From positions 1-46,941 of the forward strand of contig JANNRA010000116.1 in the NCBI GenBank assembly GCA_031401035.1: a stretch of DNA of 46,941 nt, read 5' to 3'. Positions 2,557 to 32,011 of the stretch are shown one piece after another; the first letter of the stretch is position 1, and each line of letters opens with the position of its first letter. The stretch comes from a bacterium (GTDB lineage Bacteria > Desulfobacterota > Binatia > HRBIN30 > CADEER01). The translations under genes and the position numbers were made by a program. The notes under the pieces are model-generated. The model did no database searches. It saw only the letters and a list, made by a program, of their open reading frames with translations, and was not told the origin of the DNA.

Positions 2557-2613
2557 AGACAGGTTCCCAGCCCGCCCTTCGAATGCCCCGCCGCCCATAC
2601 TACGCTCTCTGCC

Positions 2614-4928: not shown

Positions 4929-5079
4929 TGGGCGGCGCCCTCCAGGAAAATCACACCCCGGGTGGATTCGAGGTCGGGAACTGGATGCGCCCGCGGCGGC
5001 GCCGCGTTCGGGGTGCAACGGCGGACTGCATCGGGACTCGGGTTCCAGCCCGCGTCGGCGGCGTGCTAGCTCCCGGCCC

Positions 5080-5847: not shown

Positions 5848-5857
5848 AGAAGACACC

Positions 5858-5920
5858 TCACACGGAGACACGGAGGAACGGAGGTATCCGTACCCTCTCC
5901 GTGTCTCCGTCCTCCGTGTG
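5858..5920 (+). promoter_or_regulatory. Long GC-rich stem-loop between fabG and the downstream KS (candidate intra-operon terminator/attenuator or mRNA processing/stability element)
   Basis: acggagacacggag (5862-5875) pairs with ctccgtgtctccgt (5897-5910), with further nested complementarity (acgga/tccgt); no U-tract. Confidence 0.45.
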
Positions 5921-5938
5921 GAATAGTCGTTCGCTTCC

Positions 5939-7150: not shown

Positions 7151-8346
7151 GCGACCCGGTAGCGGTCACCGGCGTCGGCATCGTCAGTCCGATCGGCATC
7201 GGCGCGCGCCAGTTCTGGCAGGCCCTCGCCGCCGGCCGCTCCGGCATCGCGCCGGCGGCGGGGCTGGCCGGGCCCGACGGGCTGCCGACGCTCGCCGCCG
7301 CGGTGGGCGACTTCGCGGCGCGCGAGTTCATCACCTCGAGCCACTATCGGCGCATGGATCCGTTGTCGCGCATGGTGGTCGCCGCCTGCCGCATGGCCCT
7401 GGACGACGCCGACGCCGGCCCCGACCTCGACGTCGCGCGCACCGGCATCGTCGTCGGCTCCGCCATCGGCAATGCCTCGGAGTCGGCACAACACCTCGAC
7501 CGGCTGTTTCTGAAGGGGCCGGCGGCGGTGAGTCCGATGCTCTTTCCCAACCTGGTGCTCAACGCGCCGGCGAGCTACGCGGCGATGGAGTTCGGCTTCA
7601 CCGGCGTCAACTTCACCGTCGCGCAGGCGGAGATCTCCGGCGAGACGGCGATCGCGCTCGGCGTCGATGCGGTGCGCAGCGGCCGCGCCGACCGGGTGCT
7701 CGCCGGCGGCGGCGACGACCTGGCGCCGATCCTGCTCCGCACCCTGCATCGCAGCCGCGCCCTCGCCGGCCAGCGCGGCGGGCGCGAGTGGGCAAGCCCC
7801 TACGACGTGGCGCGCAGCGGTCTGGTGGCCGGTGCGGGCGCGGCGATGCTGGCCCTCGAACCGCTCGCCCGCGCCCGCCGCCGCGGCGCCCCGGTGTACG
7901 CCTGCATCGTCGGCAGCACCGCCTGGGCGGTGCCGGCGCCGCCGTACGGCTGGCCGTCGCGCGCCCCGGCGTCGCTGGCGCCGCTCGCGGCGCTGTGCGG
8001 TGCCGCGCCGATCGACCTCGTCTGCGGCGGCGCCAACTCGACCACGACGCTCGACGCCTGCGAGTTGGCGCTGTTCGACGCGCTCGCGCCGGTGCGCGGC
8101 GCGACCCTGACGTCGATCAAGGGCGCCATCGGCGAGTTCGGAGCCGCCGGGGCGCTGACCGTCGCCGCCGCCTGCCTGGCATTGCGCGAACAAGTCGTGC
8201 CGCCGCTCTGCGCGCTGGAGAGCGCGGCGCCGACCGGGCTGCGCCTGGCGGCACGACAGGCGCAGCCGGCGTGTCTGCGCCGCGCCCTCGTGCACGGCCT
8301 CGCCCGCGGTGGCGCGGCGGCGGCGCTGCTGCTGGAAGTGGCCTGA
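7147..8346 (+). CDS. KS-beta / chain-length-factor-like protein with Gln in place of the catalytic Cys
   Basis: GTGA stop/start overlap with the upstream KS; VAQAEISG at the active-site position and KGAIGEFGAAG replacing the His motif; the upstream 960 nt of track ORF 6187..8346 is out-of-frame Arg-rich junk. Confidence 0.75.
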   Translation: MSDPVAVTGVGIVSPIGIGARQFWQALAAGRSGIAPAAGLAGPDGLPTLAAAVGDFAAREFITSSHYRRMDPLSRMVVAACRMALDDADAGPDLDVARTGIVVGSAIGNASESAQHLDRLFLKGPAAVSPMLFPNLVLNAPASYAAMEFGFTGVNFTVAQAEISGETAIALGVDAVRSGRADRVLAGGGDDLAPILLRTLHRSRALAGQRGGREWASPYDVARSGLVAGAGAAMLALEPLARARRRGAPVYACIVGSTAWAVPAPPYGWPSRAPASLAPLAALCGAAPIDLVCGGANSTTTLDACELALFDALAPVRGATLTSIKGAIGEFGAAGALTVAAACLALREQVVPPLCALESAAPTGLRLAARQAQPACLRRALVHGLARGGAAAALLLEVA

Positions 8347-8403
8347 ATCGCCCCCGATTCCCGCTTGCGCCGCCGATTGGCCAGGGGTGGTGGTCCGATG
8401 CAA

Positions 8404-8428
8404 GAGGCGCGGACGGGGCCGCGCCCTC
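8404..8428. terminator. Hairpin between convergent genes (candidate bidirectional terminator)
   Basis: gcgcgg acgggg ccgcgc stem-loop in the 93-bp gap between the KS-beta stop (8346) and the minus-strand radical SAM stop (8440). Confidence 0.35.
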
Positions 8429-8439
8429 CAGCTCGGAGT

Positions 8440-9597
8440 TTAGGCTGGCGGCGGGAGGTAGTTCTCGATCGCCTCGCCCGGCCGCAGGTGGTCCGCCAGC
8501 ACCGCCTCGAAGGGGCGCTGATCGAGGACCTCGAACTGGCTGGCGTCGAGGGGGAAACGCGCGCCGTCCGCGGTATACGGCGCCACCGCCGCCGAACCGG
8601 CCGACAACACGGTCACCAGCGGCACCAACAACCGCTGCATCGCAGCCGGCTCACGCGTCGTCAGGACGATCTTCGCCTCGGGCAGGCCGCACGACAGGAT
8701 CGACACCAGGCGGATGAACGTCGCGTCGTCGGCGCCGCGCTGGTTGGCACGGCCGGCGATCTGACGCAGGCGCGGCACCGACAGATAGACCTCCATGCCA
8801 GCGTCGAGCAGGTGGCGGGCATGCAGAGCGAGGGCGACGAGCTCGAAGCCGAGGTCGGGGTTGAGGCCGACCAGGATGCCGGGGTTGGCGACGCGCAGGC
8901 CGGCGGCGCGGGCGCGATCGAAGTTGCCCAGGCGGCGGTCGTAGTCGGCGCGCGGATTGCCGGCCGCGGTGCCCATGAAGCGCGCGTAGTGGGGCCGCGA
9001 GTAGGTTTCCTGGAAAGTGCACATGGTCAGCTTGGCGGCGACGGCGCCGTCGGGTCGGCGAGCGAGGGCGTCGAGCAGCAGCGGATACTCGTCGGCGTCG
9101 AGCGAGCCGACGTTGATCAGTACGTGCCGGAAGGCGCGCGCCTGCGTCGCGTGCAACGCTTGGTTCACCTGCGCCAGCACCGGCGCGCGCCGCTCGGCGC
9201 GGTACTCGCCGGTGAGCAGCGCGACGCCGTACATGCCGCGCCGGCGCAGGACATCGAGCTGGTCCGCGATGGTCGCGGCGTCGACCGTCGTGCGGCGCAG
9301 CGCCGCGTTGTCATGGCGCATACCGCACATCCGGCACTCGGCGTCGCAGGTATTGGTCAGGTACAGCGGCGAGAAGGTCTCCAGGCGTGTCGGTCGGTGG
9401 GTGCGCGCGGCACGGGCCAGGGCGTACAGCGCGTCGGCGTCGAGCGGCGCCGTCCACAAGATCGCCAGGTCGTCGACGGCGAGGGGCGCGCCGGCGCGGG
9501 CGCGGCAGACGACCTCGTGACGAACCGCCGTCGGCGCCGCGGCGGCGGCGCGCAGGCGGGCGCTGACGTCGCTCGCGGCGAGGCGGAAGTGCATCAT
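8440..9597 (-). CDS. Radical SAM enzyme of the ThiH/HydG/BioB-like subfamily
   Basis: YLTNTCDAECRMC (CxxxCxxC preceded by Y-x-T/S-N-x-C as in the ThiH/HydE/BioB group); 385 aa. Confidence 0.7.
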   Translation of the reverse strand: MMHFRLAASDVSARLRAAAAAPTAVRHEVVCRARAGAPLAVDDLAILWTAPLDADALYALARAARTHRPTRLETFSPLYLTNTCDAECRMCGMRHDNAALRRTTVDAATIADQLDVLRRRGMYGVALLTGEYRAERRAPVLAQVNQALHATQARAFRHVLINVGSLDADEYPLLLDALARRPDGAVAAKLTMCTFQETYSRPHYARFMGTAAGNPRADYDRRLGNFDRARAAGLRVANPGILVGLNPDLGFELVALALHARHLLDAGMEVYLSVPRLRQIAGRANQRGADDATFIRLVSILSCGLPEAKIVLTTREPAAMQRLLVPLVTVLSAGSAAVAPYTADGARFPLDASQFEVLDQRPFEAVLADHLRPGEAIENYLPPPA

Positions 9598-9726
9598 GTG
9601 GTGCCCTCGCTAACCTTCGCCAGGGAGTCGGTCAACGTGTCGCGCGGCCATTTCGGGCCGCCCCCTCGGTCGCGCCTGTTGGCGCGCTCGGCTAGGCTCC
9701 GCCGCGTGCCCGCGCCCAGTCACGCC

Positions 9727-10521
9727 ATGTCGGTCGATGTCGAGGACTGGTTTCACGACGGCGGCCTGGCGCCGGCCGCGCCGACAGCGCACCGGGTCGA
9801 ACGCAACACCGACGCGCTGCTGGAGCTGTTCGCCGCCGCCGGCGCGCGGGCGACGTTCTTCGTCCTCGGCGACGTCGCCGCCCGTCACCCGCAGCTGATC
9901 GGCCGCATCGCCGCCGGCGGGCACGAGATCGCCAGTCACGGCTACGCGCACCAGCACCTGACGCGCCAGCTGTGGCGCGAGTTCCGCGCCGACGTCGAAC
10001 GCGCCCGCCTGCTGCTCGAGGACCGCGTCGGCGCCGCGGTGCGCGGCTACCGGGCGCCCTATTTCGCCATCCAGGCCGGCGTGCGCTGGCCGATCGAGCA
10101 GATCGCCGCGGCCGGCTACGGCTACGACTCCAGCCTGCTGCCGATGGGCCGCCCGCCGGGACTCGAGCTGGTCTGCCCGCGCGCCCCGTACCGCCATCAC
10201 AATGGCCTCTGGGAGGTACCGGTGGCGGTGCTGCAACTGGGGCGCTTCTGGCATCTGCCGCTGGCGAGCGGCTGGGGCCTGCGTCTGATGCCGCCGCGCC
10301 TGCTGCGACGCGGGCTGGCGCGCTTCGAGCGCGACGTCGGGTCGGGCGTATTCTATCTGCACCCGTGGGAGCTCGATGCCGATTCGCCGTGCGGGCCGGG
10401 TCCCTGGCGCTGGGCGCTGCGCGTCGGCCGCGGCCGGCTGGCGGAGCGCCTCGCGGCGCTGCTGGGCGAGCGGACGTTCGTGCCGATCCGCGACGTGTTT
10501 CCGGAGACGCAGGGCGGATGA
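9727..10521 (+). CDS. Polysaccharide deacetylase, CE4/NodB fold, PEP-CTERM-locus-type subfamily
   Basis: N-terminal MSVDVEDWFH and GHEIASHGYAH motifs; the upstream part of track ORF 8365..10521 overlaps the opposite-strand radical SAM and is rejected. Confidence 0.75.
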   Translation: MSVDVEDWFHDGGLAPAAPTAHRVERNTDALLELFAAAGARATFFVLGDVAARHPQLIGRIAAGGHEIASHGYAHQHLTRQLWREFRADVERARLLLEDRVGAAVRGYRAPYFAIQAGVRWPIEQIAAAGYGYDSSLLPMGRPPGLELVCPRAPYRHHNGLWEVPVAVLQLGRFWHLPLASGWGLRLMPPRLLRRGLARFERDVGSGVFYLHPWELDADSPCGPGPWRWALRVGRGRLAERLAALLGERTFVPIRDVFPETQGG

Positions 10522-10540
10522 GAGGTGTTGTGTCGGGTGC

Positions 10541-10585
10541 GAATCCCCTCACCCTGACCCTCTCGCTGCTGGAGAGGCGACCTTG
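10541..10585. repeat. Palindromic intergenic repeat, family copy 2 (half element)
   Basis: atcccctcaccctgaccctctcgctgctggagaggcgaccttg; near-identical to 2473..2516. Confidence 0.7.
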
Positions 10586-10648
10586 GGCCGCAGCGCGCGG
10601 CTTGCGTGCGTTTCGGCTGCGGCGGGGTGTGGGGATCGGACGCGCTCC

Positions 10649-11647
10649 ATGAAGGCCGCACTCCCGCTGCTCGTCGGCGGCGCGCTGTGTGCGCTGCTGC
10701 TCTGGTGGTTCGGCGTCGACGGCGTCGTCGCGGCGCTGCGCCAGGCGCGCCCGCTCGGGCTGGCGTGGTACGCGATCCTCTCCGCCCTCGTCCTCCTCCT
10801 GCTCGCCGTCCGCTGGCGGCTCGTCGCGCGGGCCCTCGGCGGCGCACCGCCGCTGGCGCGGCTGGCCGCGGCGCGTCTCGCCGGCGACGCGGTCGGCGCG
10901 CTGCTGCCGCTGACGCGCCTGGGCGGCGACCCCCTGCGTGCCGTCCTGGTGCGCGGCGCGGCGCCGTCGCTGGCGGCGGCCGGCGCCGGCGTCGCCATCG
11001 ACCGCCTGCTCGAGCTGATCGGCAACATGGTCGCCGCCATCGCCTATGTCACCGTCTTCGCGCTGACCCGCGCCGACGCCGCCACCCCGGCGCCGCGGTC
11101 GCTGGGCATCGCCATGGCGGTGCTGCTCGTGGTGCTCGCCGTACAACTGCTCGCCCTGGCGCGCGGCCACCGACCGTTGGCGCCGCTGTATGGCGCCCGC
11201 GTTCGGCGCCTGGCGCCGCGCCTGACGCCGTGGTTCGACGGACTGCGGCGCGTCGAGGACCATCTGCAGACCTTCTTCCAAGCCCACCGGCGCGCCTTCG
11301 TCGCCGGTCTCGCCTGCGCCGTCGGTACCGAGCTGCTGATCATCGCCCAGTACCACGCCCTGCTCGCCGCCTTCGGCATCGCCCTCGACCTGCCGGTGCT
11401 GTTGCTGGTCCTGCTCGGCGGCGGCCTGGCGCGCGCCGTGCCGCTGCCGGCCGGGCTCGGTGCGCTCGAAGCGGCGCAGGTCCTCGTCGTCGGCGCCAGC
11501 ACCGGCCGCGCCGATCTCGGTTTCGTCGTCGGTGTGCTGGTGCGCCTGCACGAGACGCTGCTGTTGCTCATCGGACTGGCGGCGCTGGCGTGGTGCGGGG
11601 CGTCGCCGATGCGACAGGCGGCCGTGGCGCGCGAGGCCAGCCGGTGA
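10649..11647 (+). CDS. Flippase-like / lysylphosphatidylglycerol-synthase-TM-region-like integral membrane protein (UPF0104 family)
   Basis: 8-10 predicted TM helices and a GDxxRxxLxRG-like motif (LTRLGGDPLRAV); start taken at MKAALPLL from the track frame. Confidence 0.6.
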   Translation: MKAALPLLVGGALCALLLWWFGVDGVVAALRQARPLGLAWYAILSALVLLLLAVRWRLVARALGGAPPLARLAAARLAGDAVGALLPLTRLGGDPLRAVLVRGAAPSLAAAGAGVAIDRLLELIGNMVAAIAYVTVFALTRADAATPAPRSLGIAMAVLLVVLAVQLLALARGHRPLAPLYGARVRRLAPRLTPWFDGLRRVEDHLQTFFQAHRRAFVAGLACAVGTELLIIAQYHALLAAFGIALDLPVLLLVLLGGGLARAVPLPAGLGALEAAQVLVVGASTGRADLGFVVGVLVRLHETLLLLIGLAALAWCGASPMRQAAVAREASR

Positions 11648-12198
11648 CCTCGGTCCTGCTCAGCATCGTCTTCGCGCTCGGCTGGCTGCCGCTGTTCGCC
11701 TTCCGCGCCGAAACCCTGACCGCGGCGTTGCCGCACTACTCCGCCGCCGAGCGCCTCTCGGTCTATGTCGCGCCACTGACCGTCGCCCTGCACGTCACGC
11801 TCGCCTGCCTGCTGGTGACGCAGGAGACGCCGCTGCCGCCGCTGCGCACGACGGCGGCGCTGGCGCTGTTCGCCGCCGCCCTCGCTTTCTGGTTCCGCGC
11901 CCGGGCGCAGATCGGTCCGCTGCGCAAGCGGCCGCTGCCCGACGAGCCGCCGCCGGTGCTGCGCCGCGACGGCCCCTTCGGCCTGGTGCGCAACCCGCTG
12001 TACCTGGCCTACCTCGGCGCCGCCGCCGCGCCGGCGCTGGTCGCGGCGCGGCCGCTCCTGCTGTTCACCTGGCTCATCTGCCTCGCGGCCCTGAGCGTCC
12101 GCGCGGCTCAGGAAGAAGGCCGCCTGCACGCCCAGCTCGGCCCCACCTACGCCGCCTACTGCCGCGAGGTGAAGCGCCTCATCCCCTTCGTGTGGTAG
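11644..12198 (+). CDS. Membrane methyltransferase of the ICMT/PEMT (isoprenylcysteine carboxyl / phospholipid methyltransferase) family
   Basis: GLVRNPLYLAY and C-terminal EEGRLHAQLGPTYAAYCREVKRLIPFVW motifs; GTGA overlap with the upstream gene. Confidence 0.65.
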   Translation: MTSVLLSIVFALGWLPLFAFRAETLTAALPHYSAAERLSVYVAPLTVALHVTLACLLVTQETPLPPLRTTAALALFAAALAFWFRARAQIGPLRKRPLPDEPPPVLRRDGPFGLVRNPLYLAYLGAAAAPALVAARPLLLFTWLICLAALSVRAAQEEGRLHAQLGPTYAAYCREVKRLIPFVW

Positions 12199-12209
12199 AG
12201 GGGCGCGGC

Positions 12210-13685
12210 ATGACGAGCGCTGGGCGCACCATCGTATTCTGCGAGCCGCCCTACCTGTTCTGGGATCGCCGCCGTGATCGGCTGCGGCAGGGCGAAGAGA
12301 CCATCCCGGGTATGGGCGTGCTGATGCTCGCGGCGGTGGCACGGCGGCGCGGCTATCGCGTCCACCTGCTCGACGCCAAACCGCAGGGCACGGCGCTCGA
12401 CGAGGTCTGCGCGCGCATCATCGCCCTGCGGCCGGACTATCTCGGCTTGTCGGCGACGACCATCTCGGTCACCAACGCGGCGCGTATCGCGGCGCGCGTC
12501 AAGGCGGCGCTGCCGGGGGTGGTGACGATCGTCGGCGGCGCCCATGTCAGCGCCATCCCCGAACGCACGCTCGACGCCTTCCCGAGTCTCGACTACGCCG
12601 TCGCCGGCGAGGGCGAGGTGGCGCTGTTCGCGTTGCTCGAGCACCTCGAACGCGGCGCGCCGCTCGACGACGTCGCCGGCGCCGTCTGGCGCCGCGACGG
12701 TCGCGCGGTGGCCAACCCGCGCGCGCCGTATATCGACGACCTCGACGCGCTGCCGGTGCCGGCCTGGGACCTGCTGCCCGACTTCCCGCACCGCTTTCAA
12801 CCCTCGCTGTTCAGCTATCCGCGCACGCCGGTGGCGACCCTGATCACCTCGCGCGGCTGCCCGTTCACCTGCGTCTTCTGCGACCGCTCGACCTCCGGTC
12901 GCAAGGGGCGCCTGCACGGCGTCGAGACCGTCGTCAGCCTGTGCGCCGACCTGGTCGGGCGCGGCGCGCGGCACATCATGTTCCTCGACGACCTGTTCAC
13001 CGTCCGCCAACGGCGCGTCGTCGAACTGTGCGAGGCGTTGCTTGCCGCCGACCTGCGCTTTTCGTGGAGCTGCAACAGCCACCCCAACCTGCTCGATCTG
13101 CCGACGCTGCGCCTGATGCAGCGCGCCGGCTGCTGGCAGATCGCCTACGGCATCGAGTCCGGCTCGCAGCGCGTGCTCGACACGGTCAAACGCGAGGTGC
13201 GCATCCCGCGCATGCGCGAGACGCTGCGCCTGACCCGCGCCGCCGGCATCCGCACCAAGGGCTACCTCATGCTCGGCCACCCGACCGAAACGCGCGAGAG
13301 TCTGGCCGAGACGGAGGCCTTCCTGCGCGTCGCCGAGCTCGACCTGTGCCAGATCACCAAGTTCACGCCCTACCCCGGCACACCGGCGTACCCGACCATC
13401 GCTCAGCACGGCGCCTTCAGCGAGGACTGGGAACGCATGAACGCCATGCAGTTCGTCTTCGTGCCGCACGGTCTGACGGTGGGTGAGCTCGAGCGCGCCT
13501 TCGACCGCTGCTACCGCACTTTCTACAGCCGCACGGACGTCCTCTGGGGCATGGCGAAGCTGATGGTCGGCGAGCCGCGCTTCATCGGCCGCATGGCCAG
13601 CTCGGCGGCGGTGTACCTCGGGGCGAAGCTGGCCGAGCCGGCGGCGCGGGCGGAGGCCCTGACAGGCTCGCCGGGCCTGAGGTGA
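12210..13685 (+). CDS. B12-binding-domain radical SAM enzyme (class B)
   Basis: N-terminal B12-binding Rossmann region followed by TSRGCPFTCVFCD (CxxxCxxC); 491 aa. Confidence 0.8.
   Translation: MTSAGRTIVFCEPPYLFWDRRRDRLRQGEETIPGMGVLMLAAVARRRGYRVHLLDAKPQGTALDEVCARIIALRPDYLGLSATTISVTNAARIAARVKAALPGVVTIVGGAHVSAIPERTLDAFPSLDYAVAGEGEVALFALLEHLERGAPLDDVAGAVWRRDGRAVANPRAPYIDDLDALPVPAWDLLPDFPHRFQPSLFSYPRTPVATLITSRGCPFTCVFCDRSTSGRKGRLHGVETVVSLCADLVGRGARHIMFLDDLFTVRQRRVVELCEALLAADLRFSWSCNSHPNLLDLPTLRLMQRAGCWQIAYGIESGSQRVLDTVKREVRIPRMRETLRLTRAAGIRTKGYLMLGHPTETRESLAETEAFLRVAELDLCQITKFTPYPGTPAYPTIAQHGAFSEDWERMNAMQFVFVPHGLTVGELERAFDRCYRTFYSRTDVLWGMAKLMVGEPRFIGRMASSAAVYLGAKLAEPAARAEALTGSPGLR
13556..13630. 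repeat. Copy A of a ~75-bp dispersed repeat (3' end of the radical SAM gene), repeated at 14893..14967
   Basis: ctgatggtcggcgagccgcgcttcatcggccgcatggccagctcggcggcggtgtacctcg versus cgatggtcggcgagccgcgcttcgtcggccgcagggccagcgcggcggcggtgtacctcg. Confidence 0.7.
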
Positions 13686-15118: not shown

Positions 15119-16801
15119 ATGCGCGGACGGAACGGATTCGTTTGGGCGCTGCCCGCACTGTGCCTCGGCGGCTGGCTCCTCTCCGGCTGCCTGCTGCTGC
15201 AGGGGCGGCACTGGGACGCGACGCGGACAACGGTGATCGAGCCGATCAACTCGGCCCTGCATCGCCACCTGCCGCGCGACATCAAAGCCAGGGATCTCGA
15301 TGCCATCGTGGCGCTCTACGACACCGCCACCGTCGGCGGTCTGAGCTGGGAGGCGCCGCGCGACATCTCCGCCGGCTTCGCCGAGCAGCGGTTGCGCTGG
15401 GACGGACCGGCCGCTGACGAGCCCGTCCGCCAGCGCTACGCGCGCCTGCTGGCGGAATTCGCCACCATCGAGCGCGCCGAGGTGCGCATCCACCGCATCG
15501 GCTGGCACGAGGCCGCGGCGGCCGGCTACCCGGCGGACGTGCGCGTCCTGGTGCGCGGCGTCGGTCCCGACGGGACGCGGCGCATGCTCGATCAGCGCAG
15601 CCGCATGTGGCTCGACCGGCGCGGCGGTGAGTGGCGCATCACCGGCGAGACGGTTTCCAGCCGGGAGATGGTGAGCACGGCGCAGCCGCGCTTCAGCGTC
15701 GTCACCGAGGAGGCGCGGCTGGTCGATGTCCACGACACCGCCGGGTCGCCGGTCTTCCGCCTCATCGGCGATCTCGCCGCCAGTTCCGGCGCGGCGGTCG
15801 CCGATATCGATTGCGACGGCTTCGAGGACGTGGCGCTGTTCAGCACCGATCGCCTGCGGCTCTATCGTAACAACGCCGACGGCACCTTCGCCGACGTCAG
15901 CGCCGCCATGCAGGTGCCGACGCCGCTCCCCCTCGCCGGCACCGGCCTGGTGTTTTTCGACGCCGACAACGACGGCGACCCCGACCTCTGGCTGTCCGGC
16001 ATCCACGGCGACCGCGTCTTGCGCAACGACGGGTGCCGCGCCTTCGTCGACATCACCACCGCCGCCGGCATCGACGCGCGTCCCTGGTCGAGCATGCCGC
16101 TGGTCGCCGACTACGATCGCGACGGCTTCCTGGACGTCTACGTGGTGCGCATGGGCGACCATGCGGAGAAGGCGCCGGAACCGAACTGGGACGCCCGCAA
16201 CGGCGAGGGCGACAGCCTCTACCGCAACAACGGCGACGGCACCTTTACCGACGCCACGCAGGCCGCCGGCATCGCCGAGACCGGTTGGGGCCTGGCCGGC
16301 GCCTGGGGCGACTACGACGGCGACGGCGACCCGGACGTTTACGTCGGCAACGAGTTCGGCACCAACGCCCTCTACCGCAACAACGGCGACGGCACCTTCA
16401 CCGACGTCGCCGCGCCAGCCGGCGTGCTCGATCGCGGCGCCGCCATGGGCGTCGCCTGGGGCGACGCCGACAACGACGGCGACCTCGATCTGTTCGTCGC
16501 CAACATGTACGCCAACTCGCGCTGGGCTCTCGTCCACCCCGAGTTTCCGCCGCCGGTTCCCTGGTACTTCGGCTGGGTGCCGCGCGCCGACGTCGATGCC
16601 ATCACCGACGAACTGACGCGCGGCAACTCGCTGTTGCGCAACAACGGCGACGGCACTTTCACCGACGTCAGCGACGCCGCCGGGGTGCGCGACGGGCAGT
16701 GGGGGTGGGGCGCGGAGTTCGTCGACTACGACAACGACGGCTGGCTCGACGTCTTCGCGACCAACGGATTCGTCACCGGGCCGAACCCGGACGATTTATG
16801 A
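15119..16801 (+). CDS. CRTAC1/ASPIC-family FG-GAP/VCBS-repeat lipoprotein, N-terminal part (terminated by an in-frame TGA)
   Basis: Lipobox signal MRGRNGFVWALPALCLGGWLLSGC; six or more YRNNGDGTFTDV FG-GAP-like repeats; stop at 16799-16801 is followed in the same frame by the next ORF. Confidence 0.7.
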   Translation: MRGRNGFVWALPALCLGGWLLSGCLLLQGRHWDATRTTVIEPINSALHRHLPRDIKARDLDAIVALYDTATVGGLSWEAPRDISAGFAEQRLRWDGPAADEPVRQRYARLLAEFATIERAEVRIHRIGWHEAAAAGYPADVRVLVRGVGPDGTRRMLDQRSRMWLDRRGGEWRITGETVSSREMVSTAQPRFSVVTEEARLVDVHDTAGSPVFRLIGDLAASSGAAVADIDCDGFEDVALFSTDRLRLYRNNADGTFADVSAAMQVPTPLPLAGTGLVFFDADNDGDPDLWLSGIHGDRVLRNDGCRAFVDITTAAGIDARPWSSMPLVADYDRDGFLDVYVVRMGDHAEKAPEPNWDARNGEGDSLYRNNGDGTFTDATQAAGIAETGWGLAGAWGDYDGDGDPDVYVGNEFGTNALYRNNGDGTFTDVAAPAGVLDRGAAMGVAWGDADNDGDLDLFVANMYANSRWALVHPEFPPPVPWYFGWVPRADVDAITDELTRGNSLLRNNGDGTFTDVSDAAGVRDGQWGWGAEFVDYDNDGWLDVFATNGFVTGPNPDDL

Positions 16802-17344
16802 ATGGAGATGTTTGACGGCGTCGGTCGACGCCGCGATCAGAAGTCCGGACAACTGGTGAGCATCGGCGAGAACAGCCTCAACGGCAACGAGCGCGACTGC
16901 CTGTTCCGCAACAACCGCGACGGCACCTTCACCGACACCGCCTACGTCAATCGCGCCGATCGCGTCGAGGACGGACGCGGCGTCGCGCTGCTCGACTACA
17001 ACCTCGACGGCGCCATGGACATCGTCTTGCGCAACTACCGTCAACCGGCGCAGTTGCTGCGCAACGACGGCGGCGCCGGCCACTGGTTGCAGGTCCGGCT
17101 GGTCGGGACGCGCAGCAATCGCGACGCGGTCGGCGCCCGCGTCACGGTGCGCAGCGGCGGCGTGCAACAGACGCGCGAAGTGCATGCCGGCTCTGGCTAC
17201 CTGTCGGCCTCCTCGCTGGCGCAGCACTTCGGCCTCGGCGGCGCCACGCGCGTCGAGGCGGTCGAGGTGGCCTGGCCGTCCGGCAGCCGATCGCAACTCT
17301 CCGACGTCGGCGTCGATCAACGCCTGACGATCCGCGAGGAGTGA
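16802..17344 (+). CDS. CRTAC1/ASPIC family C-terminal (UnbV_ASPIC-like) domain, same frame as the upstream gene
   Basis: ATG immediately after the TGA and in frame; content (LFRNNRDGTFTD, then an ASPIC-like tail) is the expected continuation of the upstream protein. Confidence 0.6.
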   Translation: MEMFDGVGRRRDQKSGQLVSIGENSLNGNERDCLFRNNRDGTFTDTAYVNRADRVEDGRGVALLDYNLDGAMDIVLRNYRQPAQLLRNDGGAGHWLQVRLVGTRSNRDAVGARVTVRSGGVQQTREVHAGSGYLSASSLAQHFGLGGATRVEAVEVAWPSGSRSQLSDVGVDQRLTIREE

Positions 17345-17368: not shown

Positions 17369-18922
17369 TCATCGTGCCGATGGTCCGCTCGCCGTCCCGT
17401 CATAGTAGGCTTGGCACTTCGGCCAGAGGTGCGCCGCGACCGTGCGGCCCAGGCGCAGACCCGCGACGTTGTCGGCCTGGATGTGGTAGCCGCCCATGAC
17501 GCGCGAGATGCCGGCCATCTCCGCGACGACGCTGAAAGTCGGCAGTGGCAGCGTCACGCGGCAGCTCTCGGCAGCGGCGGCGGGCGCGCGCCCCCGCACC
17601 GCCTGTATCGCCTCGCAGGCATAGCCGCGTTCGGTTTCGGAGCCCGCCACGCGCACCTCTTCGTCGCCGAACTGGTCGCTGCCGGTGAAGCGTTCGAGGA
17701 TGGACGCGCAGGCGCCGCTGACGGCGCTGTGGCCGGAGACGTAGCCGGGGAACGGCGGCGTGATGAACGTGGCGGGAGAGTATGGCATCCACTGCGCGCC
17801 CGTGATCGGGCCGACGCCCTTGCCGGGTCCGAGCCAGCCGTCGATCGGCTGGTCGCGGTAGTAGTGGCGAACGAGGGTCCACGGGCGCGACGAATCGTAG
17901 TAGCGCTTGCTCTCCCAGGCGGCGATGAAGGCGTCCATGGCGGTGTTGGCGACGCAGAAGTACAGCTTCACGTCGCGATCCATGTCCAAGCGGTCGCGGC
18001 GCGAGACCGCCTGCGCGAAGCGCAGCCAGTGCCCCGATTGTCCGGTCGAGCGCGGGCCGTCGCGCATGAACTCGACGATCGCCCTCTGCTCGGGCGTGAG
18101 GGTGGCGTTGAAGCGGAGGCACTCGTCCACTTCCGCCTTGAGCTGCGCCGTGCCGACGCGCGGCGGTGGCGGCGGGCGGAACATGTCGGCGCGCTCCAGG
18201 CCGAAGGGTCGCACCCGGTACCAGAAGGGGGTGAGGAAGTTCGGCGTGACCGTACCGCCCGTGCCGTCGGCGAAGGCGATTGGCTGCCAGCGGTCCGCAT
18301 CGCGGATCTCCGAGACGGGGTTGAGCGGGGTGTAGAACGTGTAATCCGCGTACGCCTCGCCGTTGCCGCCGATCTCGTCGCCGAGTTGGTTGGCGCCGTC
18401 GTGGTGGCGGGCATCGAGCAGCGCCGCCGCGCAGCGGTTGCCGATGCCCTGCGGCGTGGCGGGGTCGGTGGAGCGGTCGTTGACGTCGTAGCCCCACGCG
18501 CCCATCAGCGCCGTGATGTGGGTCGTCGTGACCGGATGCTGGTCAACGATGGCGCGATACGCCGCGAAGGCCATCGCCTTGCGCTTGTTGTCCGGCGTGC
18601 GTTCGGCGGCGGGCCGGCGCAGGCTGCCGCCGAACACCGTGCCGACGGCCTTCTCGTCGTAGCAGGCCCAGGCGTCGAACATCGCGGTCGCGACGATCGC
18701 CATCTGCCGCGACAGAATGGTCGGCCGCGGGCTGATGCGGACGACGTCGTCGGCGGCGTCCTCGAGCATCGCATCGAGGATGCGGTAGGTCGCCGACGGC
18801 TCGGCGCCACCCCAGTCTCGCGTCTGGGCCACGGTCGGGGTCGCCAGGAGGACGCCGACGAGGAGCGCGAGCAGGGCGCGCGCGCGCGGTCTCGGCAGGC
18901 GCCGCGCGCGCCCCCGGCGCAT
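17369..18922 (-). CDS. Secreted PAP2-superfamily enzyme, vanadium-dependent haloperoxidase-like (alternatively an acid phosphatase)
   Basis: Tat/Sec-like signal MRRGRARRLPRPRARALLALLVGVLLATPTVAQT; PAP2 motifs K-RYYDSS-RP, PGYVSGH and SRVMGGYHIQAD with haloperoxidase-like long spacing. An alternative upstream start at 19009 (MATLAMT...) would overlap the upstream gene. Confidence 0.65.
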   Translation of the reverse strand: MRRGRARRLPRPRARALLALLVGVLLATPTVAQTRDWGGAEPSATYRILDAMLEDAADDVVRISPRPTILSRQMAIVATAMFDAWACYDEKAVGTVFGGSLRRPAAERTPDNKRKAMAFAAYRAIVDQHPVTTTHITALMGAWGYDVNDRSTDPATPQGIGNRCAAALLDARHHDGANQLGDEIGGNGEAYADYTFYTPLNPVSEIRDADRWQPIAFADGTGGTVTPNFLTPFWYRVRPFGLERADMFRPPPPPRVGTAQLKAEVDECLRFNATLTPEQRAIVEFMRDGPRSTGQSGHWLRFAQAVSRRDRLDMDRDVKLYFCVANTAMDAFIAAWESKRYYDSSRPWTLVRHYYRDQPIDGWLGPGKGVGPITGAQWMPYSPATFITPPFPGYVSGHSAVSGACASILERFTGSDQFGDEEVRVAGSETERGYACEAIQAVRGRAPAAAAESCRVTLPLPTFSVVAEMAGISRVMGGYHIQADNVAGLRLGRTVAAHLWPKCQAYYDGTASGPSAR

Positions 18923-18990
18923 CAGCGAGGCCGGATGCCCGCCCCGCACCGGGGTGTCATCGACGCGGCTGATCAGGCCGCCGCCGCCGG

Positions 18991-20364
18991 TCATCGCAAG
19001 AGTCGCCATAGCTGCCCCTTGATCTTGCGCGCGCGCAGCTTCTGCAACACCTGCACGTTGGTCTTGATGCCGAGGCCGGGCACGATCCAGTTCGAGTGGC
19101 TGCGCGCGTAAGCCTCGATGCGCTCGATGAGGTGATCCTCGAGGCCGGGCGAGATGTAGAACTTCGGATGCAGGAGGTTGTCGTCGGCATCGATCTGGCC
19201 GTCGGCCAGGGCGATATCGACCATGCCGGTGCCGGGCAGGATGCGGATGCCGGTCAGGGCGACGACCGCGGTGGGCTTGAGCTCGTCCATCAGCGCGATC
19301 GTCTCGGTCACCGTCTGCTCGGTTTCGCCGGGTCCGCCGAAGATGAGGCTGTGGCAGAAGCGCAGGCCGTGCGCGTGGCACAGCGCCGAGGTGCGACGCA
19401 GGTCGGCGACGTCGAACTGCTTGCGCAGCTGCGCGATCATCGCCGGGGCGCCCGAGTCGGTGCCGAACTCGATGGCGCGACAGCCGGCGCGCGCCATCAG
19501 CGCGCACAGCTCGGCGTCGACGAACTTCGGGTTCAGGTACGCCGACCATTCGACGTCGAGCTGACGCGCCGCGATCTCCTCGCAGATCTCCTTGGCGTGC
19601 CGCATCGGCTGGTTGAAGATGTTGTCGACGAAGAACCAGTGCCGCACGCCGTCGTTCTCGCGCGCCGCCTGCAGCTCGTCGACCACCGCCGTCGCGGTGC
19701 GCATGCGGACCTTGGCGCCCTCGATCAATGGGTAGCTGCAGAAGACGCACTCGAAGATGCAGCCGCGCTTGGTCTGGATGTTCAGCGCGCCGCCGCGCTC
19801 GTAGTAGCGTTGCAGGTCGAAGCTGCGCCGCAACGGCACGCCGGTGCTGTCGAGCTGCTTGATGCGCGTCACCGACGTCACGCACGTCCCGCCGTTGACC
19901 GCCTCGCAACGATACTCGTCGGTCGAGCGCAGCGGGTGCCCGGCGGCGAGCTGCGCCAGCACCCAGGGGAACGCCAGCTCGCCCTCGCCGACGACGCCGA
20001 CGTCGGCGTGCAGGTAGTCCATGATCGCGCCGGGCATGACCGTGAACCCGGCGCCGCCGAGGATCACCGGCGCATCGCTGTGCGCGCGCACCGCGTCGAC
20101 CAGCGCCTTGTAGTCGTCGATGTACGAGGTGTTCTGCGGGTAGGCGGACGAATCGAGATTGCGCAGCGAGATCCCCACCACGTCGGGGGCGAACGCCGCG
20201 AGCTGCGTCGAGAGGGTCGGCTCAAGCGCGCCGAGGAAGCAGAGGTCGAGCGTCTCGACCTCGTGCCCATGCTGTTCCGCCACCGCCGCCATGTACGCCG
20301 CGCCGATCGGAAACACCGGGTCCGGCAGCTGCTCGGTATTGGCGGAGATCAGCAGAACGCGCAT
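18991..20364 (-). CDS. B12-binding-domain radical SAM enzyme
   Basis: MRVLLISANTEQ B12-binding N-terminus and TKRGCIFECVFCSYP cluster; 457 aa. Confidence 0.8.
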   Translation of the reverse strand: MRVLLISANTEQLPDPVFPIGAAYMAAVAEQHGHEVETLDLCFLGALEPTLSTQLAAFAPDVVGISLRNLDSSAYPQNTSYIDDYKALVDAVRAHSDAPVILGGAGFTVMPGAIMDYLHADVGVVGEGELAFPWVLAQLAAGHPLRSTDEYRCEAVNGGTCVTSVTRIKQLDSTGVPLRRSFDLQRYYERGGALNIQTKRGCIFECVFCSYPLIEGAKVRMRTATAVVDELQAARENDGVRHWFFVDNIFNQPMRHAKEICEEIAARQLDVEWSAYLNPKFVDAELCALMARAGCRAIEFGTDSGAPAMIAQLRKQFDVADLRRTSALCHAHGLRFCHSLIFGGPGETEQTVTETIALMDELKPTAVVALTGIRILPGTGMVDIALADGQIDADDNLLHPKFYISPGLEDHLIERIEAYARSHSNWIVPGLGIKTNVQVLQKLRARKIKGQLWRLLR

Positions 20365-20440
20365 GGGGTGTCACGGCCGCCGAGAGCCGAGTGGCGACTA
20401 CCATGGGGACCGCGGCCCTGTCCAAGTCGCGCCGAGCGCT

Positions 20441-21793
20441 TCACGAGATCGTCGCCCAGGCATTCTCATTGGCGCGCAGGTAGCGGTTCACCTTCAGGTT
20501 GGCGACCAGGTAGGCGAGCGTCTCGAGATAGCTGCCGGCTGGCGGCGGCAGCAGGCGGCGGGCGATGGCGCGGGCCGAGTAGAAGCCTTCGTAGACCGCC
20601 TTGAAGCCGTCCATCATCTGCTCGCTGGTCATCTGCGCCGGGCGCAGCAGCGGGCTGCCGTAATCGTAGCGGCCCCAGTCGTGCGTGGTGATGCGGTCGG
20701 CCGCCAGCATGTCGTCGTAGAACTTCGTCCCCGGGTACGGGCAGGGCGTGAAGAGCTTCAGGAACGAGACCTTGTTGTCGATCAGGAACTGCAGCGAGCG
20801 GCCGAAGGTGTCGACGGTGTCGCCGTCGAGGCCGACCATCAGCAGGCCGATGACCTGAATCCCTTTGGCACGGATGGCGGCGAGGTCGCGGTCGAAGCGC
20901 TCCGGCTTGTTGAAGCTCTTGCGGATCGACGCCAGGCTGTCCGGATTGATGCTCTCCAGGCCGATCGAGAGGCTGACGCAGCCGCTGCGCGCCGCCAGGT
21001 CGAGCAGCTCGGGATCGCGCGCGATGTTGATGGTGCATTGACTGGCCCACTTGAGGCGCAGCGGGATCATGGCCCGGAAGAGCTCCTTCGCCGCCGCCGG
21101 ATTGCCGATCGGGTTGTCGTCGAGGAACAAAATACGGCGACCGCCGAGCGCCATGACGGCGCGCAGGTCGGCGAGCACCTCCTCGACCGGACGGGTGCGG
21201 AAGCCGCGCTCGTAGAACGTCTGCACGGCGCAGTACTCGCAGGGGTGCGGGCAGCCGCGCGAGAAGACCACCGGCCAGTGGAAGTACATGCGGTACAGCC
21301 AGCTGGTCTTGAAGGCGTCGTACTTGAGCAGCGGCAGCGTCGTGTAGTCGACGCGCGCCATGTCGCGCAGGTCGTGCCAGCGGGCGGCGCGGTAGATGCC
21401 GCGGCTGCGGCCGGCGGCGAGGTCGGCGAGCACCTCGGGCCAGACCAGCTCCGCCTCGCCGGCGACGACGGCGTCGGCGTGGCGCAACGAGGCCTCGGCG
21501 GTGAGCGTCACCCAGGTGCCGCCGAGGACGACCTTGAGGCCGCGGGCGCGGAAATGGTCGGCGAGCTCGAAGGCGCGGCGGATCTGCGGGCCCATGGCGG
21601 TGATGCCGACGACGTCGCCGTCGAAGTCGAGATCGACGTCGTGGAACAGCTCGTCGACCATCGTCACCTGGTGCGGCGGCGGCGTCAGCGCGCGCAGCGT
21701 CGCCAGCGTCAGCCCGCTGGTCCAGTAGCGCGTCGTGCGCTGCAGCCGGCCGGCGCCGTCGTAGTGCGTCGGCGAGATGAGAAGGATGCGCAC
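20441..21793 (-). CDS. B12-binding-domain radical SAM enzyme (paralog of the downstream gene)
   Basis: VRILLISPTHYD N-terminus and FSRGCPHPCEYC cluster. GTG start at 21793 chosen by analogy with the paralog; the track ORF extends to 21922 with Arg-rich junk. Confidence 0.7.
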   Translation of the reverse strand: MRILLISPTHYDGAGRLQRTTRYWTSGLTLATLRALTPPPHQVTMVDELFHDVDLDFDGDVVGITAMGPQIRRAFELADHFRARGLKVVLGGTWVTLTAEASLRHADAVVAGEAELVWPEVLADLAAGRSRGIYRAARWHDLRDMARVDYTTLPLLKYDAFKTSWLYRMYFHWPVVFSRGCPHPCEYCAVQTFYERGFRTRPVEEVLADLRAVMALGGRRILFLDDNPIGNPAAAKELFRAMIPLRLKWASQCTINIARDPELLDLAARSGCVSLSIGLESINPDSLASIRKSFNKPERFDRDLAAIRAKGIQVIGLLMVGLDGDTVDTFGRSLQFLIDNKVSFLKLFTPCPYPGTKFYDDMLAADRITTHDWGRYDYGSPLLRPAQMTSEQMMDGFKAVYEGFYSARAIARRLLPPPAGSYLETLAYLVANLKVNRYLRANENAWATIS

Positions 21794-21909
21794 GCCCCGC
21801 ACGTTGCGGGGCGCTCTCCGCGCAGTCAATGCCCCCGCGGCGCAGCCGGCGCGGCCGGCCGCCGGCCGGCTACCTTGCCCGGCGCGACGGCGGCGCGGTA
21901 CGGTCGCGC

Positions 21910-22644
21910 ATGTCCGTCCCACTCGACGCCGCCCTCCCGGCCGCCGCCGCGCCGACGCGGCTGCGGGTGGTCGTCAACCGCGTCATCTTCCGCGGCATGC
22001 TGTTCGGGGCCGGGCTGATCGCCATCGGGCTCTATCGTTTCAGCCGCCCCGCCGCCTGGCGTTTCGCCAAGCAGCAGGCGCGCCTGTTGATGCGTCTGTG
22101 CGGGGTGCGGGTGCGCGTGCGCGGCCTCGAGCAACTCGGTCCCGGGCCCTACATCTTCACCCCCAACCACCAGAGCCACTTCGACATCGCGGCGCTGCTC
22201 GGGAGGCTGCCCGGCGTCACCCGCTTCGCCGCCAAGCGCGAGATGTTCGCCGAGCCGATCCTCGGCGCCGTGCTGCGCACCATGGGCATGGTGCCGATCG
22301 ACCGCGACGATCCGACGGCGTCGATTGAGCGTCTGCAGCGCGTCACCCTCGACGGCGGCTCGCTGGTCATCTTTCCCGAGGGCACGCGCAGCCGCGACGG
22401 CGCCCTGCTGCCGTTCCGCAAGGGCGCCTTCGTCGCCGCGCTGCAGCTCGGCGTGCCGCTGGTGCCGGTGGTGTGCAAGGGCACGACTGCCGTCATGCCG
22501 AAGGGCAAGTACCTGTCGATCGTGCCCGGCGACGTGGAGATCTGCGTGCTGGCGCCGATTCCGACCGCCGGGCTCGGCTACGACGACCGCGACCGGTTGC
22601 GCGATCTGGTGCGCGCGCGCATCGCGGCCGAGCTGGCGGCGTGA
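21910..22644 (+). CDS. 1-acyl-sn-glycerol-3-phosphate acyltransferase (PlsC / LPLAT family)
   Basis: NHQSHFD (HX4D) and FPEGTRS motifs; start trimmed to the internal ATG MSVPLD; divergent from the radical SAM operon. Confidence 0.75.
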   Translation: MSVPLDAALPAAAAPTRLRVVVNRVIFRGMLFGAGLIAIGLYRFSRPAAWRFAKQQARLLMRLCGVRVRVRGLEQLGPGPYIFTPNHQSHFDIAALLGRLPGVTRFAAKREMFAEPILGAVLRTMGMVPIDRDDPTASIERLQRVTLDGGSLVIFPEGTRSRDGALLPFRKGAFVAALQLGVPLVPVVCKGTTAVMPKGKYLSIVPGDVEICVLAPIPTAGLGYDDRDRLRDLVRARIAAELAA

Positions 22645-30955: not shown

Positions 30956-31924
30956 TCAGGGAGAGGGGACCGCGCGTGCTGAGATACCCACCGCGTCCTC
31001 GGGCCAGAACGGCGCGAATTGAAACCACTGCTGCGGAAACTCGCGCACCATGGCTTCGAGCTCGGCCACCACGGCGCGCATGGCGCGGTCGAGCGCCGCG
31101 TCGTCATGCGCCGCGCGCGGCAGGGTGACGCGGGCGCCGAGGCGGACGCCGTAATGGCGCCGGCCGAGGCGCGGGAAGAAGATGGGCAGGATCGGCGCGC
31201 CGGCGAGGCGGGCGAGGACGAACGGGCCGGAGGGAAAGGGCGCCGCCGCGCCGAAGAACGGCACCAGCCGCATGCCGTCGGCGGCGCCGGCGGTGCGGTC
31301 GAGCTGGATGGCGACGATCTCGTTGTCGCGCAGAGCGCGCAGCATGTTCAGCGACGAGAAGACCGAACTGTCCGCGTAGAGCACGCGCACGCCGGCGCGG
31401 GCGCGGATGGCCTCGGCGTAGCCGCCGGTGGTGGCGTTGGCCTCGTGTGCCATGACCACGTTGAACGGTCGATCGTAGGCGCGCAGCGTCTGCGCCGCCA
31501 GGTCCCAGTTGCCGAAGTGGCCGGTGACCAGCACCACTCCGCGCCCGTCGTGCAACGCCTCGGCGATCAGGTCGCGCGGCGGGGCGTCGATGCGCACCGC
31601 CGGCGGCCGGGGCCCGCACGACTCGAGCGTTTCCGTCAAACAGTGCGCGAACTCGGCGAACATGCCGAGCGCCGCACGGCGCACCTGGCGCGGGTCGGGC
31701 TCGCCCGTCCGCGGGTCGGTCAGGATGCGCCGCAGGTTGGCCATCGCACCGCGTCGATTGCGGCCGACGGCGGCGAAGATGATCGCGGCGATCAGCGGCG
31801 GCGAACCGCGCTTCCACCAGTCGGGGCCGTAGACGCAGCCGAGATAGGCGAAGCGCCGCCAGAACACGCCGTCGAAGCGGAGAGCGGCCGCGAGGCCGGC
31901 GACGGCGCCGCGCTGCATGCGCAT
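30956..31924 (-). CDS. Lysophospholipid/lipid A acyltransferase (LpxL/HtrB family)
   Basis: GHFGNWD (HX4D) motif and family-typical length of 322 aa; start at MRMQRG. The longer track ORF extension overlaps the divergent GT2 gene. Confidence 0.65.
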   Translation of the reverse strand: MRMQRGAVAGLAAALRFDGVFWRRFAYLGCVYGPDWWKRGSPPLIAAIIFAAVGRNRRGAMANLRRILTDPRTGEPDPRQVRRAALGMFAEFAHCLTETLESCGPRPPAVRIDAPPRDLIAEALHDGRGVVLVTGHFGNWDLAAQTLRAYDRPFNVVMAHEANATTGGYAEAIRARAGVRVLYADSSVFSSLNMLRALRDNEIVAIQLDRTAGAADGMRLVPFFGAAAPFPSGPFVLARLAGAPILPIFFPRLGRRHYGVRLGARVTLPRAAHDDAALDRAMRAVVAELEAMVREFPQQWFQFAPFWPEDAVGISARAVPSP

Positions 31925-32011
31925 CGGGCTAGCACAGCGAGCGCGGTGTGACACTCCGACGCAGGGCGACGGGCGGCGAACGGGCGGCGTCTCTCTGCTA
32001 CAGCTCTGCCG

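Follow-up and report, generated by a model that had tools for sequence, protein, structure and literature searches.

Probable lineage-specific juxtaposition of a vanadium-haloperoxidase-like gene and two radical SAM genes in an uncharacterised class of bacterial lipid clusters

Clusters that combine several FabF paralogues and a FabG with multiple radical S-adenosylmethionine (SAM) genes and a polysaccharide-deacetylase-like gene were first noted in Kuenenia and Desulfotalea (PMC2649909). Genome mining has labelled such clusters 'ladderane' in many non-anammox phyla, where their product is unknown (PMC9902471), and a 2026 review lists their B12-dependent radical SAM enzymes (B12-rSAMs) as uncharacterised (PMC13459092). 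We analysed a 46,941-nt contig of a Binatia bacterium (JANNRA010000116.1 of assembly GCA_031401035.1; hereafter, the window) that carries a cluster of this class and, on its minus strand, two cobalamin-type radical SAM genes (rSAM1 and rSAM2) followed by a gene for an exported protein resembling vanadium haloperoxidases (VHPOs). The known counterparts of the cluster are Kuste3335-3352 of Kuenenia stuttgartiensis, the syntenic cluster of Desulfotalea psychrophila, and the antiSMASH 'ladderane' class, with which it shares the gene content given above. It differs from them in having rSAM2 outside the ketosynthase (KS) core, beside rSAM1, and in encoding four radical SAM proteins, one of which is ThiH/NosL-like; nothing suggests that it produces ladderanes. 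The first-pass annotation of this DNA read the three minus-strand genes as a possible cassette for the methylation and halogenation of the lipid or polyketide made by the neighbouring KS genes. Our comparative analysis suggests instead that the locus is probably a lineage-specific juxtaposition inside a known, still uncharacterised class of lipid clusters, and not a cassette.

The three co-directional genes lie exactly where they had been annotated, at 17369-21793:

20441..21793, minus strand: rSAM1, 450 aa, a cobalamin-type (class B) radical SAM protein with no curated equivalog
18991..20364, minus strand: rSAM2, 457 aa, TIGR04072 'lipid biosynthesis B12-binding/radical SAM protein'
17369..18922, minus strand: VHPO-like protein, 517 aa, predicted to be exported, with DUF6851, VCPO_2nd, and PAP2 domains
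18994, minus strand: ATG, alternative start of the VHPO-like gene, overlapping the rSAM2 stop codon as ATGA

They are real genes and not chance open reading frames (ORFs), because their third-codon-position GC is 0.89-0.94 (the window has a GC content of 70-75%) and because they have orthologues in several phyla at 60-85% identity. The best named relatives of the two radical SAM proteins are found in metagenome-assembled genomes (MAGs) of Binatia and Deltaproteobacteria. The gaps within the trio are of 76 nt and 68 nt, and our scan of 17000-22300 showed no terminator-like or sigma-70-like sites. Co-transcription of the three genes is plausible given these short gaps and the lack of a detected terminator. 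No Rfam family, the cobalamin riboswitch included, reached its gathering threshold in the window, and a tRNA scan of the window found none. We also considered the extended start of the VHPO-like gene at ATG 18994. It was rejected because the extension is not conserved in a contig of a sister lineage (L089), whereas Met 18922 and the signal peptide that follows it are conserved; 18922 thus appears the likelier start.

We surveyed the neighbourhood of the trio from both of its ends. On the VHPO side, we searched 83 loci with the window's proteins: 80 genome loci with flanks of up to 10 kb and three contigs of close relatives (L001, L002, and L003, the latter from GCA_031397705.1 and with rSAMs 98-99% identical to those of the window). 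On the rSAM1 side, we analysed 80 metagenome loci encoding an rSAM1 orthologue (66-97% identity), an identity range that also covers the orthologues found in MAGs of Binatia, Kryptonia, Terriglobales, and Deltaproteobacteria. The VHPO-like family is large and tightly conserved: we counted 3,654 matches at E <= 1e-10, and 576 genome loci were confirmed. Its identity across Planctomycetota, Acidobacteriota, Verrucomicrobiota, and Myxococcota is 54-77%, and the orthologues collected from these phyla span 54-86%. The rSAM pair stands beside a VHPO orthologue in a single one of the 83 loci, L003, and there is no B12-rSAM, KS, or PlsC-like acyltransferase (LPLAT, see below) within 10 kb of the VHPO in the 80 genome loci, in L001, or in L002. 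Seen from the other end, the VHPO accompanies rSAM1 in two of the 80 loci (L095 and L096), both from the window's own clade, and an adjacent rSAM2 is found in the same two. The trio is thus restricted to one clade and is not conserved as a unit, which is the result that the first-pass annotation had itself named as counting against its reading.

The usual neighbours of the VHPO orthologues are of another kind. In L001 and L002, whose VHPOs are respectively 77% and 71% identical to that of the window, the flanking genes encode FG-GAP and UnbV_ASPIC proteins, an alginate-export-like porin, and a DUF417/DoxX protein. An unbiased census of the ORFs within 6 kb of the VHPO identified FG-GAP/CRTAC1-like proteins as the largest neighbour family (22 of 82 loci) and no neighbour family related to lipid synthesis. 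The second largest family gathers PAS/histidine-kinase proteins (18 loci), which we considered as a specific partner of the VHPO and set aside as the product of generic domain clustering.

The sister lineage of the window provides a second line of evidence. It is represented by contigs from five separate metagenome assemblies (L089-L092 and L096; L089 and L095 are one contig) that keep the window's gene order, with rSAMs, LPLAT, FG-GAP, and UnbV proteins 92-97% identical to those of the window. In all five assemblies, the VHPO gene (L089:11442-13028 and the same region of L090-L092 and L096) carries a CAG-to-TAG change at codon 158. It has further changes at residues that are invariant or nearly so in the family: L261R, Y342D, Y354D, W378R, and Y381S. 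Both rSAMs are intact in the lineage with the broken VHPO frame, and the dN/dS between this lineage and the window reaches 0.35 in the VHPO but only 0.11-0.12 in rSAM1 and rSAM2. The VHPO gene of the sister lineage thus appears to be a pseudogene that has reached fixation in the population. Since it has decayed and the lipid genes have been kept, the latter are maintained without a working VHPO. This decay is the strongest argument against a functional coupling between the VHPO and the rSAMs.

The history of the VHPO gene also seems to differ from that of its neighbours in a closer relative. The gene at L003:2979-4610 is 88% identical in nucleotides to 17369-18922 of the window (dS 0.28), and its last ~400 nt are 67-87% identical; the flanking rSAM genes are 97-98% identical between the two contigs (dS 0.06-0.11). 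This suggests allelic recombination, or a relaxed constraint, limited to the VHPO gene.

The two rSAM genes can be placed in the lipid cluster of the same contig, whose other parts are:

232..13685, plus strand except for 8440-9609: core of the lipid cluster, collinear with L085
8440-9609, minus strand: ThiH/NosL-like radical SAM protein, scoring 239 bits, under the cutoff, with the model of 3-methyl-2-indolic-acid synthase
12213-13685, plus strand: HpnJ-like B12-rSAM (rSAM3), last gene of the core
21829..22644, plus strand: PlsC-like 1-acylglycerol-3-phosphate acyltransferase (LPLAT), Pfam Acyltransferase at 1.9e-31, start codon uncertain
30956..32695, both strands: LpxL-like acyltransferase (minus) and family 2 glycosyltransferase (GT2; plus) of the rSAM1/LPLAT sub-cluster

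The core encodes, in this order, a PaaK/FlxY-like ligase, a YegS-like lipid kinase, two KS, FabG, two further KS, the ThiH/NosL-like protein, a deacetylase, an HpnL-like flippase, an ICMT-like protein, and the HpnJ-like B12-rSAM. With rSAM1 and rSAM2, this makes four radical SAM genes on the contig. The ligase is of the PaaK/BagE/FlxY type, the KS genes (2.5-8.3 kb) are FabF-like, and the reductase is FabG/FlxB-like. The lipid or polyketide context that had been proposed from the KS genes is thus supported, these genes being part of a cluster of the aryl-polyene/'ladderane' type. Like aryl-polyene and flexirubin clusters, the window has a PaaK/FlxY-like ligase, KS pairs, an LPLAT, an LpxL-like protein, and a GT2. 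It differs from them in that all scores are below the flexirubin equivalog cutoffs (FabG obtains 218.9 bits with the FlxB model) and in the presence of four radical SAM genes and of HpnJ/HpnL-like genes. Neither an ammonia-lyase nor an ApeB-type methyltransferase was found among the ORFs scanned, parts of the stretch at ~36-47 kb being without annotation in these scans. The association of a ThiH/NosL-like protein with a ligase of the aryl-acid type hints at an aromatic starter unit.

rSAM2 starts with MRVLLISANT, as expected for the B12-binding N-terminus noted in the first-pass annotation, and matches the Pfam profiles B12-binding (64.8 bits) and Radical_SAM (60.5 bits); its cluster motif is CIFECVFC. 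It scores above the equivalog cutoff of TIGR04072 (396.6 bits for a cutoff of 360) over residues 2-454, a family name under which we found nothing in the literature. Its orthologues are 73-83% identical and occur in Binatia, Deltaproteobacteria, Acidoferrales, Kryptonia, Dormibacteraeota, and other taxa. In L085 and L087, which are respectively a Deltaproteobacteria and a Binatia MAG, rSAM2 is encoded between KS2 and FabG, in a KS-KS-rSAM-FabG-KS-KS core flanked by an AMP-ligase, a YegS-like kinase, a further radical SAM protein, a deacetylase, an LPG-synthase-TM/HpnL-like protein, and another B12-rSAM. The proteins of L085 map on the window in collinear order, gene for gene, over 232-13685. 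rSAM2 is the exception and has a single match, at 18994-20364 on the opposite strand. The corresponding slot in the window, between KS2 (3852-about 5090) and FabG (5101-5847), is vacant, and rSAM2 is displaced by ~13 kb from this FabF/FabG-type core on the same contig. Judged by this collinearity, rSAM2 is a member of the lipid cluster that was relocated beside rSAM1 in this lineage.

The best characterised relatives of rSAM2 are TsrM, its closest solved structure (6wte, 6.5e-41), and BzaD (212.9 bits with the BzaD model), even if its scores are far below the cutoffs of both families. TsrM and BzaD both methylate aromatic carbons. Arg68 of rSAM2 aligns with Arg69 of TsrM, which lies beneath the cobalt of cobalamin. 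Glu273 of TsrM caps the iron-sulfur cluster and blocks SAM, whereas rSAM2 has an isoleucine at this position, which makes canonical radical chemistry possible in the latter. We would expect rSAM2 to be a cytoplasmic, cobalamin-dependent enzyme that performs a methylation, or the formation of another C-C bond, on the acyl/aryl lipid of the cluster, either during its growth or once it is assembled. It would probably act at the chain-building stage, on a chain bound to the acyl carrier protein or on an aromatic starter.

rSAM1 starts with a GTG (N-terminus VRILLISPT) and has the class B architecture, i.e., an N-terminal B12-binding Rossmann domain and a radical SAM core with a CxxxCxxC-type motif (CPHPCEYC). 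The Pfam scores are 73.4 bits for Radical_SAM and 30.8 bits for B12-binding, the latter slightly below the Pfam cutoff of 32.1, and the best NCBIfam matches (BchE, HpnJ, and PhpK) are each far under their own cutoffs. The two rSAMs of the trio had been described as paralogous. This holds at the level of the superfamily, but their identity of 29% over 342 aa does not fit a recent paralogy, and each falls in its own tightly conserved orthologous family. Sequence comparison thus indicates a relationship at superfamily level rather than a recent duplication. rSAM1 is 27% identical to the HpnJ-like rSAM3, and its orthologues in the range of phyla listed for rSAM2 are 77-87% identical to it, so that it is as well conserved as rSAM2.

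The most frequent neighbour of rSAM1 is the PlsC-like LPLAT, present within 10 kb in 47 of the 80 loci, usually immediately upstream and on the opposite strand; in the window, the LPLAT gene (21829..22644) is likewise divergent from rSAM1. The LpxL-like acyltransferase is found near rSAM1 in 35 of these loci, the GT2 in 17, and the HpnJ-like rSAM3 in 11. The PlsC-like and LpxL-like acyltransferases are, by this gene-neighbourhood evidence, the conserved partners of rSAM1. The latter would be a cytoplasmic, cobalamin-dependent enzyme that methylates the cluster's lipid, or forms other C-C bonds on it, probably at the stage of acylation. The LpxL-like and GT2 genes directly adjoin the LPLAT gene in L089, whereas ~8.3 kb separate them from it in the window. 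This stretch (22717-30950) was apparently inserted into the cluster; it encodes an SPFH/Band7 protein, a large BTAD-AAA-TPR regulator, a Calx-beta protein, and a 411-aa ORF without family.

The third protein of the trio can be compared with VHPOs of known mechanism. In esVHPO, vanadate is bound by K373, R380, S427, A428, S429, R490, and H496, and halogen is transferred to the substrate by K329, aided by E327 (PMC12633397). K329 is strictly conserved in the selective AQ-VHPO subfamily, and the non-selective CiVCPO, ZgVIPO, and CoVBPO have a proline in place of this lysine (PMC11312541). The AQ-VHPOs, most of which carry an N-terminal signal peptide, are also an earlier example of bacterial VHPOs that are secreted and whose genes lie outside biosynthetic clusters (PMC11312541). 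The N-terminus of the window protein, MRRGRARRLPRPRARALLALLVGVLLATPTVAQ, similarly reads as a signal peptide, in agreement with the first-pass annotation. The motifs on which that annotation based its assignment are all present: K339-x6-R346-P347, S396-G397-H398, and S473-R474-x5-H480-x3-D484, with 75 residues between SGH and SR. Each residue named in these motifs, including the catalytic set K339, R346, S396, G397, H398, R474, H480, and D484, is invariant in an alignment of 26 orthologue sequences.

The proposal that this PAP2 protein resembles VHPOs more than small acid phosphatases was upheld by domain, structure-database, and fold comparisons. It matches the Pfam profiles DUF6851 (143.1 bits), VCPO_2nd (54.7 bits), and PAP2 (35.8 bits). 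Its best match by sequence in the PDB is esVHPO (9ptr, 2.4e-53); XhnO11 (9l8x, an entry on which we found no literature), NapH3 (8cxl), NapH1 (3w35), ZgVIPO (4cit), and, weakly, CiVCPO are also matched, and there is no acid phosphatase among the matches at E <= 1. The AlphaFold (AF2) model has a mean predicted local distance difference test (pLDDT) of 83.7, and its Foldseek overlays with VHPOs cover the whole length, with TM-scores relative to the query (TMq) of 0.74-0.75 for NapH3, NapH1, and XhnO11 and of 0.61-0.63 for ZgVIPO and CiVCPO. The model thus predicts the VHPO fold with two four-helix bundles, one N-terminal and one PAP2-like at the C-terminus. PhoN/PhoC-type phosphatases overlay only the C-terminal half (TMq ~0.3, E ~1e-4). 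PhoN, PhoC, and EB-NSAP have in common with the window protein the three PAP2 motifs, including H-x3-D, but they are single domains of ~215-230 aa with closely spaced motifs. The window protein, with its 517 aa, its two domains, and its 75 aa between motifs 2 and 3, does not fit the class A non-specific acid phosphatases.

Within the VHPOs, the protein combines traits of both groups. It is akin to NapH1 (3w36), esVHPO (9ptr), and the AQ-VHPOs in its two-bundle fold with an N-terminal bundle of the DUF6851 type. It also has the vanadate ligands Lys, Arg, Ser, Arg, and His of the selective enzymes, its K339, R346, S396-G397, R474, and H480 aligning with K373, R380, S427-A428, R490, and H496 of esVHPO. 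It is only 26-28% identical to these enzymes, and it lacks their halogen-transfer lysine: Gly289(-Pro290) is found at the position of K329, Arg287 at that of E327, and His398 at that of Ser429. The S-G-H with an acid-base histidine and the proline at the position of the lysine are shared with CiVCPO (1vnc) and ZgVIPO (4usz), which differ from it in identity (13-19%), in phylogenetic clade, and in the N-terminal domain, which is nearer to the NapH1 type in the window protein. If it is a haloperoxidase, the replacement of the halogen-transfer lysine by Gly-Pro and the presence of His398 at the position of Ser429 suggest an enzyme that sets hypohalous acid free, rather than a tailoring halogenase acting at a specific site. 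With some reserve, we favour the view that it is a stand-alone, exported, non-selective haloperoxidase.

A less likely reading, to be taken seriously nonetheless, is that the protein is an exported phosphatase, or another vanadate-independent enzyme on a VHPO scaffold, and not a haloperoxidase. The K/R/SGH/R/H/D set is common to PAP2 phosphatases, including the retained aspartate of H-x3-D, and a phosphate intermediate was trapped in the structure of an apo-chloroperoxidase (3bb0). NapH3, which is an isomerase, shows that the VHPO fold can host other chemistry. We found no characterised member of the clade in the literature, no NCBIfam model matches it, and its PDB relatives are as distant as indicated above. 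Yet, the protein has all the residues that bind vanadate in esVHPO and NapH1, without variation in the family, as well as the acid-base histidine of CiVCPO-type enzymes, and its whole-length fold matches are VHPOs. Moreover, the non-halogenating NapH3 has lost that histidine (SGF), whereas the window protein keeps SGH.

The gene on the other side of the VHPO raises another possibility, which involves these features:

15119..16801, plus strand: FG-GAP repeat (CRTAC1-like) protein, 560 aa, FG-GAP_3 at 2.5e-45, convergent with the VHPO-like gene
16802..17344, plus strand: ORF with FG-GAP_3 and UnbV_ASPIC domains, 180 aa, in the same frame as the upstream ORF

The two ORFs are joined as TGA-ATG (junction at 16799-16804), and the split into ~560 aa and ~180 aa recurs in L003, L089-L092, and L094. 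We considered a selenocysteine or a read-through at the in-frame TGA and rejected both, since the two-ORF split is also found in other lineages with spacers of 6 bp and 18 bp. The 560-aa protein is probably a lipoprotein, given its LLSGC lipobox. Orthologues of the FG-GAP/UnbV genes (53-70% identity), matching both ORFs or the UnbV ORF, are present in 9 of the 80 rSAM1 loci. In seven of these nine, all outside the window's clade, and in L094, they lie beside rSAM1/LPLAT in loci devoid of VHPO. This recurrence identifies the putative CRTAC1-like lipoprotein as an accessory of the lipid cluster.

One could alternatively regard the VHPO-like enzyme and the FG-GAP/UnbV (CRTAC1-like) lipoprotein as an extracytoplasmic pair that is independent of the rSAMs. 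Genes of the two kinds are neighbours, at a distance of 6-10 kb or less, in 22 of the 83 VHPO loci, in Planctomycetota, Acidobacteriota, and other phyla; in Pyrinomonadaceae, FG-GAP/UnbV is often directly upstream of the VHPO on the same strand, and both window proteins have what read as export signals. We consider this pairing unlikely. The FG-GAP/UnbV proteins near VHPOs in other phyla are only 28-44% identical to those of the window, and it is with rSAM1/LPLAT, away from any VHPO, that the true orthologues (53-70%) are found. The frequency of adjacency is also to be read with the caveat that it was not weighed against the density of FG-GAP/UnbV genes, CRTAC1-like genes being probably multi-copy in these phyla. 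Finally, FG-GAP/UnbV is intact in the sister lineage where the VHPO decays. We found no literature linking UnbV with haloperoxidases.

The trio could also be, at least within this lineage, a tailoring operon: the rSAMs would methylate the KS-derived lipid or polyketide, which would subsequently be halogenated or oxidised by the exported VHPO. Some aryl-polyene pigments are indeed halogenated, such as xanthomonadins and chloroflexirubins. The genes follow each other closely on one strand, perhaps with an ATGA overlap, and no terminator was detected. The VHPO is uninterrupted and retains all its catalytic residues, and close relatives keep the arrangement. The comparative data make this very improbable: the arrangement is missing from 82 of the 83 VHPO loci and from 78 of the 80 rSAM1 loci, being restricted to one narrow clade, and in the sister lineage the VHPO has become a pseudogene while the rSAMs and the whole lipid cluster remain intact. 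The lack of the halogen-transfer lysine makes a site-selective halogenation of the NapH1/esVHPO type unlikely, and the compartments differ, the rSAMs being cytoplasmic and the VHPO exported. The methylation and halogenation cassette originally proposed is thus not supported, in view of the lack of conservation of the trio, the decay of the VHPO, and the absence of this lysine. If true, a cassette of rSAMs and VHPO would be a new route to halogenated, methylated lipids, which the comparative evidence speaks against. A bolder variant—an exported non-selective VHPO recruited in one lineage, co-transcribed with the rSAMs, and halogenating or oxidatively cross-linking an aryl/polyene-type lipid at the envelope, possibly with the FG-GAP/UnbV lipoprotein—seems to us highly improbable; if true, such a recruitment would supply a halogenase for halogenated aryl-polyene-like lipids, for which we know of no assigned halogenase.

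We therefore retain the lineage-specific juxtaposition as the preferred reading. rSAM1 and rSAM2 would be two of the four rSAMs of a widespread, multi-phylum 'ladderane-like'/aryl-polyene-related lipid cluster, the rest of which would consist of 232-13685, of the LPLAT gene at 21.8-22.6 kb, and of the LpxL-like and GT2 genes at 31-32.7 kb. The VHPO-like gene would have entered between rSAM2 and the FG-GAP/UnbV genes only in a narrow clade. If its product binds vanadate, it would be non-selective and produce hypohalous acid outside the cytoplasm, and would not be the tailoring halogenase of the cluster.

Several observations weigh against this reading. The trio is co-directional, with gaps of 76 nt and 68 nt, an ATG overlapping the rSAM2 stop codon, and no terminator detected, and it may well be co-transcribed in the window. 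The window and two of its close relatives each have an intact VHPO. The FG-GAP/UnbV protein next to the VHPO is an accessory of the lipid cluster and has distant paralogues near ~1/4 of the other VHPO loci, so that an indirect link between VHPO and cluster through this protein is possible. In L094, a 506-aa protein with a weak match to di-haem peroxidases (E 0.006) is encoded roughly in the place of the VHPO. Finally, the lipid made by the cluster may or may not be halogenated.

Two parts of the locus have a relevance of their own, even if neither is new in kind. One is the lipid cluster with four rSAMs, whose proteins are 66-85% identical across distant phyla. The other is the exported VHPO-like family, which is found in soil and aquatic Planctomycetota, Acidobacteriota, and Verrucomicrobiota, apparently has no characterised member, and could matter for the natural cycling of halogens. 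The two are leads for experiment.

We also inspected two unannotated genes that lie next to rSAM1 in other loci—the one for the 506-aa protein of L094 and one for a 517-aa protein in L093—as candidate cryptic VHPOs. Both were rejected, the first being weakly di-haem-peroxidase-like, the second matching no family, and the two being mutually unrelated. The protein of L094 (8394-9914) is secreted and has two CxxCH motifs; its gene lies between those of LPLAT and rSAM1, next to FG-GAP/UnbV.

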